DNA from: a virus
Lineage: Duplodnaviria > Caudoviricetes
DNA: 64,000 bases
Virus record (IMG/VR): IMGVR_UViG_3300006143_000333
Location: 32,001 to 96,000 of that record
Strand: one strand, 5' to 3'
The notes beneath the pieces were generated by a model. The model saw only the letters and a program-made list of their open reading frames with translations, did no database searches and was not told the origin of the DNA. The position numbers were made by a program, and so were the translations under genes. Positions 16,157 through 32,444 of this stretch are shown piece after piece; the first letter of the stretch is position 1; each line of letters starts with the position of its first letter.

Positions 16157-16225
16157 TTAAGTAGTATGTGATAGGTAAAACTGTTGCATGACCAATTTAA
16201 TAGAATAATTGGAAAGGAAAATAGA

Positions 16226-17314
16226 ATGAAAGAAGTTACGAATAGATTTGGAACAGGAATTTTGTACGAAGAAAGTGATTTAGGAAAGAACATTTATTGT
16301 GTATGTACTGCCTGCATGAGTGTGTGGTCTGATTTTTTGAGCTTTGCGAATGAGGAGGCTGTTAAAGACAAAGATGGCAAGTGTGTTACACCATATTTTG
16401 TAGAAGAAAATTCTAATGATGTACTTAATCCAACAGATACGATCGTTGTTCTGGGGTGTCAGGTAACTGATCTTGCGATTTACAATGATTTAGAAACTGC
16501 AGAAGAACTTCATGAGCAGCATCCCAATACTCCAATTTATATGGGAGGATGTCTTGCACAGAGATTTGATATTGAGTTACCAGATTATCTTAGACGACTT
16601 GATGTTGTGCGAAAAGAATATGTAGATTTGAAGTATGTTACAGGGTTTATTGATTATAGAAAGCCTTTCTGGAATAGAAAATTAAAAGAAAACGATGATG
16701 AGTTTGCAGTTGGTAATTTGTTTCGGCATATGTATCCTTTGAAAATTGGAGCAGGATGTCATGGTAAGTGTAAGTATTGTACAATTCGTAACACAAGAGG
16801 AGAAACATATCATACTGATGCATATTTACAGGTAAAAGAATTTCTGGATCATGCTGATGAAAGTGTTGTAGTAATTAGTGATAGTCCAACTGTACAACAG
16901 ATTAAGGATTGGTGTCATATAGCAATTCGGTACAATAAACCTATTTCTTTTAGAAATGTGGAACCTCAAAATGCAAATGCTTGTAGAGATGAATTAATCA
17001 GTTTAGCAGATAAAGGATTGCTGAAGATATTTCATTGCCCTATCCAAAGTGATAACGCAAGAGTTCTTCAGGCTATGAATAGAGACATTGATCAAACCCT
17101 TTGGTATGTTGCACTTGCACAGGATTTAAGAAAATGTGGAACAAAAGTAGCTACCAATATTATCATTGATTATGTTGTGGATGGAAAAGTAATACATAAC
17201 ATGAATGAAAATTGGTTGAATGATAAGTTTGATTATTGGTCCTGGAATCCCTATTTTGATGGCAATTGGGATTATCAGAAAGCTGAAGAAAGATTTAAAA
17301 AGTATATTGGATAA
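16226..17314 (+). CDS. Radical SAM protein, methylthiotransferase (MiaB/RimO)-like
   Basis: GCHGKCKYC CxxxCxxC; N-terminal VVLGCQVT and GGCLAQR; HCPIQS..VLQAMNR. Confidence 0.7.
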   Translation: MKEVTNRFGTGILYEESDLGKNIYCVCTACMSVWSDFLSFANEEAVKDKDGKCVTPYFVEENSNDVLNPTDTIVVLGCQVTDLAIYNDLETAEELHEQHPNTPIYMGGCLAQRFDIELPDYLRRLDVVRKEYVDLKYVTGFIDYRKPFWNRKLKENDDEFAVGNLFRHMYPLKIGAGCHGKCKYCTIRNTRGETYHTDAYLQVKEFLDHADESVVVISDSPTVQQIKDWCHIAIRYNKPISFRNVEPQNANACRDELISLADKGLLKIFHCPIQSDNARVLQAMNRDIDQTLWYVALAQDLRKCGTKVATNIIIDYVVDGKVIHNMNENWLNDKFDYWSWNPYFDGNWDYQKAEERFKKYIG

Positions 17315-17320
17315 TCAAAA

Positions 17321-17480
17321 CAGTCGTTGGTGAAAGATAAACGCATTTAAGACAATAATATGCTCACAGGAGGTAACGCTTACACAAAAGTAAGTATTCC
17401 GAGGCAGGTAATCGGCTTCAACATATGAAGTATCTGAACTGTGCATGAGTGCTGGAGGAGTGAAAGGCTCACCACGACTG
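17321..17480 (+). ncRNA. Candidate structured RNA
   Basis: Closing stem CAGTCGtTGGTGA/TCACCACGACTG with several internal hairpins. Confidence 0.45.
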
Positions 17481-17500
17481 GTTATTGAGAAAGGGAAAAT

Positions 17501-18744
17501 ATGAAAAACAAAATAGAAGAAGCAAAAGATTTAAAGTATCGGTTAGAAAATAATAAAAAGATAGTCCAATATTGTCTTGGAAAACAGGAAGATAATGACG
17601 GCGGATTTATTCATAATCCCAATAATGATAAACATAATTTTGTGTTTTCTACCACACAACATCATTCATCAAAACCAATATATTTAGATGCTTACTATGG
17701 ATATTATGGCAATAGTAATGTATCTATGTTTAATGATGAATTTTACATTACATGTATGGTAGAAGCAATAAATAAATTTCTTCCTCAACTTAGGGAAGAA
17801 ACAGAGAAAATTATGGGGCAGAAATACAATGAAGCACTATTAGAGGCGAAAGGTGAAGCTGAGAAGATTCTTAAAACAATTGAAGATCTAGGTTTGAATT
17901 AGGCAATGAAAAATTCATTTCAATTATTACAGAAGGAGAGGTCATGATTAATATAGAGAAAACAGATAGTATAGAACAAGAATATTTACAGTGTTCAAGC
18001 TGTTTAAAATGTAATGATGATTTAAATATGTTTAAAATCATTGTTGGTAAAAATATGAGACAAACAACAACTGTGAAATTATGCGAAGAATGTATGCGTG
18101 ATTTATTGGAAGATTTAAAAAGATTGGAAATTAACGGTCAGATATAAGTGGCAATGAATATTTGATTTTGTGGTGTGAGGTGATAGGATGACAGAGAATG
18201 AAGCAATCGCAAGAATGAGGTACAGAATAGATACAGCAACAGAAGCAATTGGAAAAGGTTCTGATGGTAAGGCTTATGAGGATATGGAAATCGCAATTAA
18301 AGCACTTGAAGAAATTCAACAGTACAGAGTAATTGGGACAGTTGAGGAATGTCGAGAGGCACGGGAAAGGCAGATTGGGAAGAACCCCATAATTTTAAGT
18401 GAGCAATCTGTAGAATCAGAGAAAAAATTATATATAGCAAAGTATTTCAAATGTCCTACTTGCGGAAACACATCTACATATTTCGGAGGACTACCTAATA
18501 ATTGTCATAATTGTGGTCAGAGGTTGGAGAGTGATGCCACATGACCTACCAAAGAGCAGACCAAAAACATCCATTAATGGGGCTTGATAATAAAATCTGT
18601 AAAAATCCTGCCTATTGGTGTAGGTTACATCAAGTCTGGTTGTCTGATGATGATGTAAAGAAGAAACAATGTAAATGTAAACAGACTTTTGACATGGTTG
18701 GTACATATTGTTGCGGAAATTTAGTCAAGAAGTCAATAAAATGA
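17501..18744 (+). other. Four small ORFs (17501..17902, 17944..18147, 18188..18544, 18541..18744), several with CxxC motifs
   Basis: ORF track with SDs; junction repeats at 17907, 18155, 18737. Confidence 0.6.
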
Positions 18745-18807
18745 AACTTTCAAGTAAGAAAAGAGAAATATATATATCACAAAAATGAAAAGGAGAGATG
18801 ATAAGTT

Positions 18808-19578
18808 ATGTGTAATTTTAAGAGTGGAATTATTTTGAAGAACAAGGTGGTTTTAGCACCAGAAGGAAATGAAAGCCATTCAGATTTATTGAAAAATCTT
18901 GAAATTGAAGATACTCACATGAATGCATCTAAAACATTTGTAAGAGCAGAGTTAATTCCTAAAAATAATGATAAAACGACCAATGTAAAAGACTGGAGAT
19001 ATAAAGTCGATCAGGATATTGTGCCTGATTGGTATGAAAAAGACCCAGAGAGATACGAACAAGATTTTAGAAATGCAGTTGAAGAATATATGAATGAGTG
19101 GAGAAAACAGTTAAAATTCATTTGTGGGCATTATTGGACAAGTGCTCAGGATGGGAATCGTACATATTATTTTATGAATGGGATTCTTAAAAAGTCAGAC
19201 TTTGGTAAAACAAATAATTATGCAGAATCTTATGTGCGGAGAGATCTTATTAATAGTGAGTTGGCAGAGGATTTAAAGAAAGAATTTGGAGATAAACTTG
19301 TTCCGATTTCTCTTGATTTGACTTCTATGGATGGATTTAAAGATTATGGAAGTGTTGAAGGTGATATTTTAGCAATCCCAAATATTCAGTTGCTTATGAA
19401 GTTTGGTGAAAGTATTCCATTGATTGATAATTGGTATTGGCTTGCTAATCCTAATCAGACACCGAAGAGAAACGACGCCCGCTATGTTCTGTGCGTTAGC
19501 TCCGATGGCGATGTGTGCTACGGCGATTGCGGCTGGAGTGGCCGGGGCGTGCGTCCGTTTTTCATCCTTCAATCTTAA
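18808..19578 (+). CDS. DGR target protein with C-terminal variable (C-type-lectin-fold-like) domain
   Basis: WYWLANP...GVRPFFIL C-terminus carrying the VR. Confidence 0.88.
   Translation: MCNFKSGIILKNKVVLAPEGNESHSDLLKNLEIEDTHMNASKTFVRAELIPKNNDKTTNVKDWRYKVDQDIVPDWYEKDPERYEQDFRNAVEEYMNEWRKQLKFICGHYWTSAQDGNRTYYFMNGILKKSDFGKTNNYAESYVRRDLINSELAEDLKKEFGDKLVPISLDLTSMDGFKDYGSVEGDILAIPNIQLLMKFGESIPLIDNWYWLANPNQTPKRNDARYVLCVSSDGDVCYGDCGWSGRGVRPFFILQS
19477..19559 (+). repeat. DGR variable repeat (VR)
   Basis: 83-bp ungapped match to 20070-20152; 18 mismatches, all at TR A positions. Confidence 0.96.
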
Positions 19579-19620
19579 ATCTTTGAATTTTGCAAAAAAC
19601 CATCGGGTAGCCAGTAATCA

Positions 19621-19638
19621 GGAATGCGTCAGCATTCC
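19621..19638. promoter_or_regulatory. DGR target-recognition hairpin
   Basis: GGAATGC-gtca-GCATTCC downstream of VR/IMH. Confidence 0.75.
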
Positions 19639-19679
19639 GTAGGTAGCCGATGAGCGACTGAAAGGAGCGGGGAAAACCA

Positions 19680-20048
19680 GTGAGCGAAGCGAAACTGGAT
19701 GTTATTGTAAAAGCAATAAATCTTATGGAATATACTATGACAATTACATCAAACCGAAAGAGGTATCCAGTTAAGCATTTAACATTGGTAAAACGCATCC
19801 AAAATCGCTGTATGGATATATATGAATATTTGCTTGATGCAAATAGGCTGAAATTGGATACTTCAAAATCGGAACGCCAAGAATTACAAACAAAAGCATT
19901 TTCATGTTGTGATAAGTTGTCTTGTTATGTGGAACTTTCTATGAAATTGAAATTAATTGGAAGTGATACAGTAGGATATTGGCAGAAACAAATAAATGAT
20001 GTGAAATATATGAGTATTGCATGGCGTTCAAAAGATAAAGAGAGATAA
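19680..20048 (+). CDS. avd: DGR accessory variability determinant (four-helix bundle)
   Basis: KRYPVKHLTLVKRIQN..AWRSKD; between target and TR. Confidence 0.85.
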   Translation: MSEAKLDVIVKAINLMEYTMTITSNRKRYPVKHLTLVKRIQNRCMDIYEYLLDANRLKLDTSKSERQELQTKAFSCCDKLSCYVELSMKLKLIGSDTVGYWQKQINDVKYMSIAWRSKDKER

Positions 20049-20069
20049 TTTTAGGTTGTTTGTTGTATG

Positions 20070-20152
20070 ACCCACTATGTTCAGTACGTTAACTCCAATG
20101 GCAATGTGAACTACAACGATTGCAACTGGAATGACAAAGGCGTGCGTCCGTT
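20070..20152 (+). repeat. DGR template repeat (TR)
   Basis: AAC/AAT-rich copy of VR; flanks 20053-20064 and 20214-20225 are complementary. Confidence 0.96.
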
Positions 20153-20271
20153 CTGGATCGGAAGACGAATGAAAGTAAGAGAAACACTGAAATTAGAGTC
20201 CCGATATCAAAAGAATAAACAACCTTTCCTGATTCAAAAATGTCAGGATAAATACAAAGGAACAAAATACT

Positions 20272-21315
20272 ATGATAGAAGATAAAACAGATTTTGAAAA
20301 AGTAGTAGATTTCGGTAATTTATATCAAGCATATTTAAAATCTAAATCAGGTAAAGGTTTTTCAAAAAGCAGTCAAAAATTCCAAGTATTAGCTCTTGAT
20401 GGAATTCATCAAATAAAGAGAAGATTAGAAACTAAAACATATCAAGTATCAAAATACAATGAATTTATAATATATGAACCGAAAGAGAGAGTCATTAAAG
20501 CATGTTCGTTTGTAGATAAAATTGTACAGCATAGTTTGTGTGATAATGTACTGATTCCAAGATTGAATAAAGAGTTTATTCAAACAAATTATGCTGGACA
20601 GATTGGCAAAGGTACATTGTATGGATTGGATTGCTTAAAAGCTCAGATGTATCTTGCATATCAGAAGTATGGATATGATTGTTGGATTATAAAAGCTGAT
20701 GTTAGCAAGTTCTTTTACAATATCAATCACGATATTTTGAAGGATATTTTGAAATATTTTATAGAAAATAAAGAAGTGTATTGGCTGTGTGAGAAGTTTA
20801 TTGATAGTACTGAGGGAGTAGGACTTCCATTAGGTAATCAGGTTAGTCAAGTATTTGCACTTTTATATTTATCAGTGTTAGATCACTTTATCACAGGAGA
20901 ACTTGGAGTTAAATATTATGGTAGATATATGGATGATTTTTATTTGATAGTACAAAATAAAGAATATGCGAAATGGTGTTTAGCAGCTATTTATGAGTTT
21001 GTGTATTCATTAGGTCTTGAATTAAACAGTAAGACTCAGGTCATTCCTTTTAAAAATGGAATCAAATTTTGTGGTTTTCATACATATGTGACTTCAGATG
21101 GTAAAGTAATCCGAAAGCTGAAGAACGAAAATAAACGTGCCGCTAAAAAGAAATTTAAGAAAATGGTTGGATTAGTGAGGTGTGGAAAACTTAGCAAAGA
21201 GAAATTTTATGAGAGTTACAATGCTTGGAAAAATCATATATCACATGGCAATTGTGTGAAATTGGGATATGAGATGGATAGATATATAGAAAAATTATTT
21301 ATAGGAGAAAAATGA
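20272..21315 (+). CDS. DGR reverse transcriptase
   Basis: EPKERVI, KADVSKFF, GLPLGNQVSQ, YGRYMDDF. Confidence 0.96.
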   Translation: MIEDKTDFEKVVDFGNLYQAYLKSKSGKGFSKSSQKFQVLALDGIHQIKRRLETKTYQVSKYNEFIIYEPKERVIKACSFVDKIVQHSLCDNVLIPRLNKEFIQTNYAGQIGKGTLYGLDCLKAQMYLAYQKYGYDCWIIKADVSKFFYNINHDILKDILKYFIENKEVYWLCEKFIDSTEGVGLPLGNQVSQVFALLYLSVLDHFITGELGVKYYGRYMDDFYLIVQNKEYAKWCLAAIYEFVYSLGLELNSKTQVIPFKNGIKFCGFHTYVTSDGKVIRKLKNENKRAAKKKFKKMVGLVRCGKLSKEKFYESYNAWKNHISHGNCVKLGYEMDRYIEKLFIGEK

Positions 21316-21545
21316 TGGAATATATTTTGTTTTCATTTATATTGGCTGGAACACCTGCTTTATATACTGGATATTGTAATAAATTGAGAGACTTAATTCG
21401 ATTAATTTTCATCATAACATTTATCGTAATCTATTATATTAATAAATGGGAAACCGCAGATATTAATGTGGGATTATTCGTTTGTTGGTGTGCAGTATGG
21501 ACGATATTTTGGGATAATTTATATAAGAAACTTAAAAGGAAATGA
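21312..21545 (+). CDS. Small membrane protein
   Basis: Three hydrophobic segments; stop codon is the left arm of repeat 21543. Confidence 0.6.
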   Translation: MMEYILFSFILAGTPALYTGYCNKLRDLIRLIFIITFIVIYYINKWETADINVGLFVCWCAVWTIFWDNLYKKLKRK

Positions 21546-21570
21546 AACACGAGTTTTAAGGAGGAAAATT

Positions 21571-23905
21571 ATGAAATCAGTAGAAGAAAGAATTACAAAT
21601 AAGATTGAAGAAAGTGAAGATGGAGTGTTGATGAAGTTCCTTGGAGCTAAAAATGTTGAAAGACTGAAAAAGGAAGTTACAGATGCAATTATTCAACAGG
21701 TAATCAAAGATTTACATGATAGTTGTGATTATATAATTAGCCCAGACGATATAGTGCAAGACATTATTGATGATATTATAGATTCTGCTAATAAGAATAT
21801 TAGACCGAAAGTAGAAAAGCTGTTGTATAAGAAAGCTATGGAAAAATTAGGATTAGAGGAATAGTTTTAAAATTTCCGTTTTAAGGCTATTTTAGAGAAA
21901 GGATAATAATATGAAAAATTACATAGAAGAATTAAAACAGGATGATCCTAACGCAATGATGACCCCACAACAGTATTTTGATTCTATGAAGGAAAAGAAA
22001 AACACCGTATCTTCTGAAGATTTAAAGAAGATTTATGATAATTGCTTGGAACTTGCGAATAAATATAGGATTACTGGTCAAGTGCGTGGGCTGAGAAAAA
22101 TATTGTTCTGTATGGAGTCTATAGAAAAAGAACAAAAACTTGTAGATATGGGCATTACAACTTTTATCTATAAAGATGATATTGATTTCTATATTGATAG
22201 CGTCGTTAAGAGTAGAAAAAGAGATGAGAAGCCGATTAAAATTATTGAATTAGAGCGATATGAAAGAGAAATTCCTGATGAGATTGTAGAGGTAATTGAC
22301 AAAACTAAGGAATTATTTGACCAAATGTATATTGTATATACTGATTATACTGGCAAAGAAGAGCGTAAAATTGAAGCAGAACGAAAACAAAAAGATCCTA
22401 TTCTTTTTGGAACCTTTCAAAATAAAAAAAAGAAAGTGTGTATTGACAGATTCTATTATCTTGGTGATTGGATTGACGAATTTTGTGATTTGACACTTGA
22501 CAAAATGATAAATGAAACTGAAAAGTTGGGCAGAAATATTGTTAGGACAATAACAACTCCGAAAGATGTAGAAGGATTAAGAAAATATATTGATGCTCAT
22601 TATGAAGTAGAAAAGGATAGTATTTCAAAGATTATTAGAAAAGCAGATGCAGATTTTACGCCAAAGATTAGTTTGTTTTCAAAGGTTAAAACTGTGTTCA
22701 GTAGAAAGAAGTAGATATGATACAAGACTTAACCGCAAATAGAGATTTTCAAAACGATAGAGATTTGAGTATTTTATCAAATTTAATAAGACAGAGTTCA
22801 ACTCAGGATGATTTAACATCTCTATATGATGAAGTCGTATTAACAGGAACAACTTTTGATCGTGACCATAAACGTTATATTTTGGACTATGAAAGCGAAC
22901 AAAAGAATATGTGTGATTGCTGTGGTTCTCCAATTAGAATTCGACCTTGGGATTTTGAAGAAAACAAAACGCTATGTCCTGCGTGTGAAAAATGGTTAGA
23001 AGAATCACAAAACAGGAAATATGATGGAGAACTGCTTGAAGAAATAATAGATGATTCGTGGTCTATAAGAATTGTAAAGCCCTGGGATATAAATGATTTT
23101 GAAAGAGAAAATGCAGTTGATAATGTATTATTGTGGGACTAGATAAAACGAAGGTTTCAAGTAAAAATGAGGTGGTAATTTGGAAAATATTTTAAGTAAA
23201 AATAATGACGGATCAATAGATGTCATGGACAGATATGGATTTACGGAATATACAGTTGCCAAGAATGAAAATGGTATAGTAGCTAGATTGGCAAATCAGT
23301 TATATGAATATGAGAATTTCTTTACAGAAAGGCTTAAAGATGTATTGATGAATTACTTTGATGTTCCATCTGACACATATGCGTATAATCTAACAAGACA
23401 TAAAACTGCTTTTTCTGAAGTAACCATATCTCTTGATGATTTTGAAGAATTTGATGAAGAAATCATTGATGATATTGTGAAGTATATCAAAGACAATATT
23501 TAGCCAATAGAAGAAACATTTTAACTGGATGGAGGTGTGTTCGTGTATCAGAATTGTTGTAAAAAATGTGGAAGTATCTCATTACATACAGAAGTAAAAG
23601 GTAATAACACTGGTTTATATTGTGATGATTGTGGAGCCTGGGTGAAGTGGTTAGGTAAGGATGAACTTAGAGCGTTTGAACATAGTCAGATAGAGAGTAA
23701 CAAGTTATCTAATAAAAACATAACTGCCAGACTAAAAGAGTTTGTTGAATTTCTTGAAAAGAAAATTGATTCTGAATATGATAATTTACCAAATTCAAAA
23801 GATGATGCAATTAGAAAGAATGTTTGCTGTGCAATTATGGAACGAGATAAAAATGCAATCATCAACATTATAAACGGGCATGATTTTAATTATATAGAAG
23901 AATAA
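21571..23905 (+). other. Five hypothetical ORFs (21571..21864, 21911..22714, 22717..23142, 23180..23503, 23537..23905)
   Basis: ORF track; junction repeats at 21543, 21868, 23144, 23508. Confidence 0.65.
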
Positions 23906-31286: not shown

Positions 31287-32444
31287 ATGGCAGATAGAGC
31301 ATTGGCACATATTGAAAAAATTGAGTGGGTAAGACCGATTGATGGAGCAGATAATATTGAACTTATTGGAGTCCTTGGATGGGTTTGTATCGCAAAGAAA
31401 GAAGAGTTTAAGCCAGGAGATTTAGCCGTGTACATTGAAATTGATAGTAAATGTCCTGAATCTGATGAAAGATTTGCTTTCTTAGCAACAAAGCATTATA
31501 AGGTAAAAACAATGAAGCTAGGGAAATTTAAGGTTATTAGTCAGGGACTTGCACTCCCGATTTCATTATTTCCAGAGTTGAGTGATAAAGCTATTGGATC
31601 GGACGTGACTGAAAGTCTTAAAATTACTTATTCTTGTGAAGAAGATATTAAGAGAAAGTCCAATAATATAGATTCTAATGCTAAATATAAGTCTATGGCT
31701 CGGAGACATAAGAAATTCTTCAGCAGACCGCTTGTTCGTAAGATTATGAGATATAAGTTTGGCAGGAAAATTATGTTCCTGTTCTTTGGTAGGAAGAAGG
31801 ATAATCCAAAAGAGTTTCCTAAGTGGATTGTTAAGACGGACGAGACACGAATTGAGAACGCACCGTTTTATCTTGAAAGTACCGATAAATGGATTAAGAC
31901 AGAGAAGTTGGACGGAACAAGCTGCACATTTGCTGTAGACAGAATTAAGAAGAATAAGTTTGAGTTTATTGTTTGTAGTAGAAATGTGAGACAGGCAGAT
32001 AGAAATCAGGAAACTTACCATGAGTCAAATGTCTATTGGGAGCTGGCAGATAAATATGGCATTGAAACAATTTTAGCTAAGTTTGCTACAGAGAATGGAT
32101 ATAATAGAGTGGTTCTCCAGGGAGAGGGTGTCGGATCAGTTCAAGGTAATCCATACAAAATGAAAGAGAATAAGTTGTTTGTATTCAATCTGATTGTTGA
32201 TGGTGTACGCCTTGGAACTGTAGATATGGCTAAGTTCTGTGAACAGAATGGTTTAAAGAATGTACCAATTATTGATACAGAATATGTTCTGCCTAAGACT
32301 ATGGAAGAAATGAAGCTGGAAGCTGACGGATATAGTGAAATCAATCCAAAGGTAAAAAGAGAAGGATTTGTGTATAGAAGTGTTGATGGACAGCAGAGCT
32401 TTAAAAACGTATCAAGAGAATATTTGCTGAAGCATAATGGGTAA
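31287..32444 (+). CDS. ATP-dependent RNA ligase (Rnl2/DRB0094-like)
   Basis: PIDGADNIE, KTDETRI, TEKLDGTS, QGE, REGFV, SFK. Confidence 0.88.
   Translation: MADRALAHIEKIEWVRPIDGADNIELIGVLGWVCIAKKEEFKPGDLAVYIEIDSKCPESDERFAFLATKHYKVKTMKLGKFKVISQGLALPISLFPELSDKAIGSDVTESLKITYSCEEDIKRKSNNIDSNAKYKSMARRHKKFFSRPLVRKIMRYKFGRKIMFLFFGRKKDNPKEFPKWIVKTDETRIENAPFYLESTDKWIKTEKLDGTSCTFAVDRIKKNKFEFIVCSRNVRQADRNQETYHESNVYWELADKYGIETILAKFATENGYNRVVLQGEGVGSVQGNPYKMKENKLFVFNLIVDGVRLGTVDMAKFCEQNGLKNVPIIDTEYVLPKTMEEMKLEADGYSEINPKVKREGFVYRSVDGQQSFKNVSREYLLKHNG

Follow-up and report, generated by a model that had tools for sequence, protein, structure and literature searches.

What does a phage diversify with a retroelement whose target gene lies far from any tail gene? 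The question is raised by a diversity-generating retroelement (DGR) in a 64,000-nt stretch of DNA, hereafter the window, which covers positions 32,001 to 96,000 of IMG/VR record IMGVR_UViG_3300006143_000333 from a virus of the Duplodnaviria (Caudoviricetes). To our knowledge, DGRs are the only natural systems of targeted protein hypermutation in prokaryotes, and their proven use in phages is receptor switching. A first-pass annotation made from the sequence alone had described a complete DGR acting on a small non-structural protein, possibly an intracellular binder, mobilised as a cassette between two junction sites. We find that the locus is almost certainly a canonical DGR, and that its target is probably (at a rough 60% for the two statements together) a soluble intracellular protein of the early phase rather than a virion receptor-binding protein. 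This reading rests on the position of the gene in the early arm of the phage, the lack of a structural-arm variable repeat in a 95%-complete relative (G002), and the early-operon position of genes that share the target's N-terminal domain.

The DGR spans window positions 18808-21315, and its parts, all recovered where the first-pass annotation had placed them, follow the BPP-1 order of target, variable repeat (VR), hairpin, Avd, template repeat (TR) and reverse transcriptase (RT):

18808..19578, + strand: DGR target gene, encoding a soluble two-domain protein of 256 aa with 1068 homologues.
18808..19107, + strand: N-terminal domain of the target (aa 1-100), a separate module to which other C-termini are attached in many proteins.
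19108..19575, + strand: predicted C-type-lectin-fold domain of DUF6273 type (aa 101-256), which carries the VR (VIA-align structure matches, BFVD, phrog_9958 E 2.5e-24).
19477..19566, + strand: VR, with a mutable stretch at 19477-19545, the invariant GC-rich GGCGTGCGTCCGTT and three non-A differences at 19560-19563.
19621..19638, + strand: hairpin GGAATGC-GTCA-GCATTCC, with a 7-bp stem and a GTCA loop, 43 nt past the target stop.
19680..20048, + strand: Avd accessory protein, 122 aa (phrog_3206 'Avd protein of DGR', E 3.7e-18).
20070..20159, + strand: TR, with 25-26 adenines and AAY codons predominating.
20272..21315, + strand: DGR RT, 347 aa (PF00078, RVT_1, E 3e-15; phrog_1423 E 2e-108), with LGNQVSQ and YMDD motifs.

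The VR and TR form a direct repeat of 89-90 nt at an offset of 593 nt, longer than the 83 bp with 25 adenines first proposed; its TR copy has 25-26. The VR falls within the last 100 nt of the 256-aa open reading frame (ORF), and 12 nt separate its end from the stop codon. Every VR/TR difference at 19477-19545 is a changed template A (15 to G, 2 to T, 1 to C), and TR adenines account for 17-18 of the 20-21 mismatches overall, the remaining 3 being confined to the last 7 nt. Upstream of these three lies GGCGTGCGTCCGTT, a 14-nt GC-rich block identical in both copies, as in the pattern of the initiation of mutagenic homing (IMH) sequence versus its template counterpart IMH*; the three non-A differences after it thus give the IMH/IMH* asymmetry typical of DGRs. 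In relatives the hairpin lies 22-56 nt (mostly 38-56) past the stop with differing stems (GGAATGC, AGGGGC, GAACAATGC, GTATTGTATC) and GNRA-like loops (GTAA/GGAA/GAAA/GCAA), so the stem covaries; the folding z-score is just -1.85 for the whole 116-nt stretch that holds the hairpin. The RT adjoins the TR and carries the DGR-type [ILV]GxxxSQ and YxDD signature, and its NCBIfam matches were sub-threshold hits to group II and Drt models in a set without a DGR-specific curated RT model. The Avd protein scores below the NF033474 cut-off (E 2.8e-7, 30.8 bits against a cut-off of 80) and is therefore a divergent Avd. An Rfam search of 17000-23500 returned no match, and scans for sigma-70 promoters and terminators gave no excess over shuffled sequence.

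By the mechanism of the BPP-1 DGR, the TR would be transcribed and the RT, together with Avd, would make a cDNA in which adenines are misread; this cDNA would then take the place of the VR, at the target gene's 3′ end, while the IMH, rich in GC, and the hairpin that follows it would give the process its direction. With its many AAY codons the template is predicted to randomise about 12 codons on the lectin domain, of which eight (aa 231-246) vary most in nature.

Comparison with relatives indicates that the element has been active recently in this lineage. The 89-nt TR is identical in the window and in two IMG/VR relatives (L018 and L019), yet the VRs of the three differ pairwise at 8-15 positions, all of them TR adenines, and it is this divergence of the VR at adenines alone, under an unchanged TR, that points to recent activity. 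All 23 variable VR positions fall on adenines, among the 24 adenines in the first 80 nt (chance 3.5e-19), and each of the more distant relatives carries its own adenine-biased VR. Column entropy among 113 natural homologues (at least 82% identity) peaks only at codons 231, 233, 235, 237, 239, 242, 244 and 246, which are templated by AAY codons plus one AAA codon. Public sequencing runs were assessed as contigs; in a contig from an RNA-library (metatranscriptome) run, X16, the VR differs from that of the window at 7 positions, each a TR adenine. The locus is covered by RNA-library contigs, a weak sign of transcription given possible DNA carry-over, and a cover gap of X16 at 21319-21600 corresponds to another gene after the RT in that strain.

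The search for remote VRs found one, VR2, which is frameshifted, and none else in the 129-kb genome. An ungapped scan of that genome with adenines as wildcards recovered only the VR beside the RT (VR1), and VR2 emerged from a gapped comparison at contig positions 18178-18273, within a 252-aa ORF (L138:17662-18420) 33 kb upstream and outside the window. The lectin domain of this gene is 33% identical to that of the target and hits phrog_9958, and VR2 itself is about 80% identical in DNA to both TR and VR1, well above the remainder of the gene, which means that this or a sister TR homogenised it in the past. VR2 now has five non-adenine changes and a net loss of 4 nt that puts it out of frame, although the old frame still ends GVRPFFIIQS-stop, and its sequence is identical in three independent runs. 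The RT-side target is thus the sole intact target on the contig. Flanking the VR2 gene are a 566-aa ORF with an NPPF motif that by eye resembles N6-adenine methylases and a phrog_2598 gene whose DGKQR motif suggests a DUF262 relative, a setting we counted for an early, non-virion role.

The target is, as first described, a 256-aa protein without a transmembrane (TM) segment or signal peptide, since no 19-residue window exceeds 1.1 in a Kyte-Doolittle scan. Structure prediction gave a confident model of the whole protein (AlphaFold2; predicted local distance difference test score, pLDDT, 96.5), and the VR-bearing part, aa 101-256, is modelled as a C-type lectin fold of the DUF6273 type. Its top match is 9qa6, the N-terminal DUF6273 domain of the Thomasclavelia ramosa IgA peptidase (Z 14.2, root-mean-square deviation 2.6, 151 aligned residues), followed by the DUF1566 domain of Legionella Lcl (Z 9.1), the DGR target TvpA (Z 7.9) and animal C-type lectin domains (about Z 7). 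Neighbours of the domain in BFVD are DUF6273 proteins from gut phages. Pfam gives no hit for the target itself, and an 84%-identical relative (P0058) passes PF19789 (24.9 bits vs 23.5).

The N-terminal domain (N-domain) behaves as a module of its own. An exhaustive search found many proteins that match aa 1-100 alone and continue into other C-termini, the non-lectin ones built of roughly 9-residue repeats, and an 11-sequence alignment leaves M1, C2, K5, S6, H24, D35, E48, W63, D68, Q69, D70, P73 and W75 invariant. Modelled alone, the domain reaches a pLDDT of 96.2. It has no family in Pfam, PHROGs or NCBIfam, its matches in the ESM Atlas are its own kin only, and BFVD holds a single homologue; searches of solved structures and BFVD gave no match to virion folds or anchoring domains. 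We tentatively propose that the 256-aa protein belongs to an undescribed early phage family of retargetable intracellular binders, in which an N-domain with an invariant N-terminal cysteine is joined either to a DGR-diversified lectin domain or to 9-residue repeats. Separately, several phage contigs of about 42 kb (among loci L286-L311) stop within the N-domain gene, which suggests repeats or hypervariability there too.

The argument for an intracellular role draws on the genomic setting. The contig of the window (128,958 bp, 32% G+C) encodes tRNA-His guanylyltransferase, methylases, a CCA-adding enzyme, RNA ligase, helicase, primase, DNA polymerase, RecJ, ligase, NrdD/G and an integrase, and the target gene, set among early and counter-defence genes, is co-directional with the replication genes. 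At its end (L141, contig 115001-128958), a plus-strand tyrosine integrase is followed on the minus strand by an endolysin and a 644-aa ORF. No structural genes were found on the 129-kb contig, so what it represents is a larger phage's early and accessory arm; the record probably covers about 80% of a temperate phage of some 150-160 kb. Relatives are records of 110-162 kb, three of them classed as proviruses, and in G002, a 95%-complete provirus, the terminase and the DGR are 69 kb apart and on opposite strands. The TR of G002 matches just itself and one VR, and no tail-side or structural-arm VR was found in that genome. Prophages with the same DGR occur in Eubacterium plexicaudatum ASF492, Roseburia sp. 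1XD42-69, Lachnospiraceae bacteria A4 and MD308, bacterium 1xD42-87 and Konateibacter massiliensis; the DGR belongs to an approximately 150-kb temperate phage of mouse-gut Lachnospiraceae, for which INPHARED holds no near-identical phage record.

The same placement recurs where the N-domain occurs in other phages. IMG/VR has some 140 N-domain loci; we fetched 79 N-domain-encoding loci from it, about 45 of which have an adjacent Avd and RT and about 30 a homologue of about 254 aa lacking both, and annotated the neighbours in five small temperate phages. In all five the N-domain gene sits in the early region: after the integrase, repressor and a small cro-like ORF (L304), divergent from the repressor (L311), immediately downstream of the Ant anti-repressor (L300), downstream of integrase and repressor (L310), and between an ImmA-like regulator and an exonuclease plus DNA polymerase (L303). 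This placement is the strongest, if circumstantial, support for a non-virion role, and together with the early-arm position and the single VR of G002 it strengthens, on the same circumstantial footing, the earlier suggestion of a non-structural intracellular binder.

Several considerations weigh against that role. We know of no experimentally characterised phage DGR target that is not a virion protein; moreover, a virion protein can do without a signal peptide, and in large phages the structural genes lie scattered. Instead, the target could be a virion-associated or released adhesin, of tail, whisker or capsid decoration, in which the N-domain anchors and the lectin domain binds host-surface or gut glycans, an account we regard as possible but doubtful. 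The solved relatives of the lectin fold (DUF6273, DUF1566, TvpA) are extracellular binders, the BFVD matches include receptor-binding and tail proteins that bear the lectin domain, and one homologue gives a weak Hoc-like hit. A constant N-domain with swappable C-termini is a tail-fibre pattern too, the helix at 80-101 ahead of the lectin domain looks like the neck of a collectin and might form fibre-like trimers, and BPP-1 Mtd and Hoc-like or tentaclin DGR targets would be analogues. Nor does the N-domain have a recognised fold or activity: its top PDB match, to RNase PH-like domains at Z 5.0, was judged not meaningful. The literature, in addition, reads small DUF6273 targets as receptor binders (PMC10743442; bioRxiv 10.1101/2024.10.15.618418). 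An adhesin sits poorly, however, with a gene in the early and accessory arm among replication genes, on the other strand from the distant terminase of G002, with N-domain genes lying beside repressors or anti-repressors and outside tail modules in 5/5 small temperate phages (a basis of five loci), and with an N-domain that matches no known virion fold.

Two further accounts concern what the protein serves and whether it still varies. That it serves the lysogen, as a prophage-borne defence sensor whose diversified binder senses or blocks superinfecting phages or mobile elements, would suit relatives that are integrated proviruses in cultured Lachnospiraceae, a contig with an integrase, N-domain genes that cluster at the immunity region and, weakly given possible DNA carry-over, the RNA-library contigs over the locus; cellular DGR targets linked to conflict systems are also cited in PMC8008677. 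We consider it improbable, since in the sampled small phages the gene is oriented with the early lytic direction and not with the repressor, and Pfam and structure searches revealed no recognisable effector domain. It is also unlikely, though less so, that the DGR of this strain is a fixed relic, intact in sequence but with its turnover ended, like VR2. The exact VR of the window recurs in contigs from three mouse-gut DNA runs of different studies; the deletion and non-adenine changes of VR2 are the same in three runs; and one relative (L237) lacks avd-TR-RT and has a decayed VR and Cys2. On the other side, nothing is broken in RT, Avd, TR, IMH or hairpin, very close relatives that share the TR differ in VR at adenines only, and rare variants drop out of contigs, hiding any turnover within a sample.

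If the target is indeed a soluble early intracellular protein, the conserved 100-aa N-domain would supply a constant function, as effector or docking module, and the hypervariable lectin domain a changeable recognition of a variable host or rival-phage protein. The protein might then act in counter-defence, in host takeover or in controlling the lysis-lysogeny switch. That a DGR drives the evolution of an intracellular binder at this locus is a proposal we put forward with low confidence.

The cassette claim concerns the sites on either side of the DGR, between which the first-pass annotation had placed the DGR and a coupled ORF:

18737..18752, + strand: left junction site TAAAA-TGAAAC-TTTCA, overlapping the stop of the upstream ORF 18541-18744.
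21312..21545, + strand: hydrophobic ORF of 77 aa, overlapping the RT stop (ATGA); its TGA is the first three bases of the site at 21543.
21543..21558, + strand: right junction site TGAAA-CACGAG-TTTTA; the same CACGAG spacer recurs, with different flanks, in L018, L019, L021, L237 and 4/5 prophages.

The motif TRAAA-N6-TTTYA occurs 24 times in the window vs 3.2 expected, a count reached in 0/100 shuffles, and 38 times in the contig, each copy with a unique spacer; no such site lies within the DGR unit. TGAAAC and CACGAG flank the same DGR in L018-L021 and in five cultured-strain prophages, and the neighbours vary. Identity to L018 ends at the left arm of the TGAAAC site and again on either side of the CACGAG site, the flanks in L237 differ on both sides of an unaltered CACGAG site, and contigs diverge from the window at 18736/37 (X16) and 21562 (X3). 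Along the genome the order of spacers is kept and the content between them varies. Modules neighbouring the DGR are exchanged at these 16-bp sites. Another candidate junction motif, AAATGAAAC, was rejected as a chance occurrence (3 matches vs 2.2 expected).

The sites hold up as boundaries insofar as spacers are kept and flanks change exactly there, but breakpoints also occur at 19604 and 21300. At the first, L237 lacks 19604-21542 (avd-TR-RT), its homology stopping at 19603, and retains the target and the CACGAG site; this target (L237:5977-6900) has a decayed VR, Cys2 changed to Ser and GVRPFF changed to GVFPFF, with the CACGAG site about 100 nt past its stop. L237 represents either loss of the DGR followed by decay or the state before insertion. 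At the second, RT codon 343, where there is no site, the 77-aa ORF is swapped for an unrelated gene of about 100 aa in L018, L020, L021 and X16 contigs (X16 divergence at 21288-21301). The 77-aa ORF was found only in the window and L019/L235, and its distribution marks it as a variable accessory gene outside the DGR core. Its coupling to the RT and its stop at 21543 are as first annotated, but three TM segments are not: a crude Kyte-Doolittle scan gives a single strongly hydrophobic one.

The cassette claim is partly supported by these comparisons: the unit occupies a fixed slot between TGAAAC and CACGAG, but no relative without exactly 18737-21558 was found in IMG/VR via g21911, via site patterns (mostly chance matches) or via g13916, and mobility of the DGR unit itself through the sites is no more than a possibility. 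In L162 a larger block, 17923-23143, is replaced, with breakpoints at AATTCA and CGAAGG sites. In more distant relatives the target-avd-TR-RT unit stands either before g13916 or after g15767, and these sites do not accompany it; the DGR lies within 10 kb in 1/80 relatives of g13916. The DGR here appears, from its distribution, to be a sporadic accessory module in one slot of a plastic region punctuated by sites.

Two other features of this region are recorded in their own right. The genes g21911 (21911-22714) and g22717 (22717-23142), with site 21868 on one side and site 23144 on the other, make up a two-gene module; at least 12 IMG/VR phages that have no further neighbour in common with the window carry it too, at 80-91% identity. 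A 'transposase' label for g21911 (from phrog_10081) is unsupported by any Pfam or NCBIfam hit. A 376-aa ORF at window 16184-17314 has a CxxxCxxC motif, radical-SAM-like by eye, gives no PHROG hit, and is missing in several close relatives that retain the adjacent genes.

The locus adds a clean case from cultivable hosts in which the sole intact DGR target is an early-region, soluble protein of two domains. Prophages in mouse-gut Lachnospiraceae that can be cultured, a member of the Altered Schaedler Flora among them, make the use of a DGR in intracellular conflict tractable to test, and the N-domain family, a marker of immunity and early regions across many gut phages, offers a further lead of its own. 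If the intracellular reading is true, a DGR would here evolve the recognition of variable host defence or regulatory proteins, a phage-side counterpart of adaptive immunity; if the target proves to be a virion adhesin, this is an ordinary gut-phage DGR.

Among known systems, the DGR of BPP-1 (mtd-avd-TR-brt) shares with the present one its gene order, adenine-specific VR/TR differences, a C-terminal VR on a C-type lectin fold, Avd, a GC-rich IMH whose TR copy has mismatches, and a hairpin that follows the VR. Its target, however, is the Mtd-type tip of a tail fibre encoded in the structural module, whereas here it is a soluble protein of 256 aa, with the N-domain joined to a DUF6273-type lectin domain, encoded in the early and accessory arm. 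The junction sites recall the promoter-stem-loop (PeSL) cassettes of T4-type phages, in which short conserved palindromic elements stand at gene junctions of plastic regions and modules are shuffled; unlike those, the sites described here have a 5+6+5 build, and relatives retain the unique spacer of a site even where both flanks differ.

The closest structural counterpart of aa 101-256, the DUF6273 domain of the T. ramosa IgA peptidase (PDB 9qa6; PMC12402451), belongs to a secreted, cell-wall-anchored protease, is 17% identical to the target domain and has no DGR to diversify it. Gut Firmicutes phages commonly carry DGRs (10.64898/2026.01.26.701711), and small DUF6273-only targets have been described in such phages as nd4/nd12 target2 (PMC10743442), in Lelie/CP11 (PMC11792537) and in Toutatisvirus (bioRxiv 10.1101/2024.10.15.618418), the last study also treating the DGR as variable hotspot cargo whose target genes persist without it. 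Those loci resemble ours in a DUF6273 C-lectin-like domain with a C-terminal VR and in a DGR present in part of the phage group; they differ in adjoining tail genes, in being read as receptor binders, in lacking the N-domain found here and in typically having two active VRs, whereas the second VR here is frameshifted.

A target outside the structural module also has a precedent in the second DGR target of Quimbyvirus (ORF 80/84), which lies in a defence-related island and was predicted to be non-structural (Benler et al. 2021, PMC8008677). Because such non-structural-module and small DUF6273 phage targets were already published, the novelty of the earlier reading was overstated. Like the target described here, the Quimbyvirus protein is a C-type lectin encoded far from structural genes, among methylases and tRNA-repair genes. 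It is, however, encoded far from its RT and on the other strand, and its Bacteroides phage of about 75 kb has an additional tail-side target (PMC8008677), whereas in the present lineage the 95%-complete relative has no tail-side VR and the sole intact target adjoins the RT.

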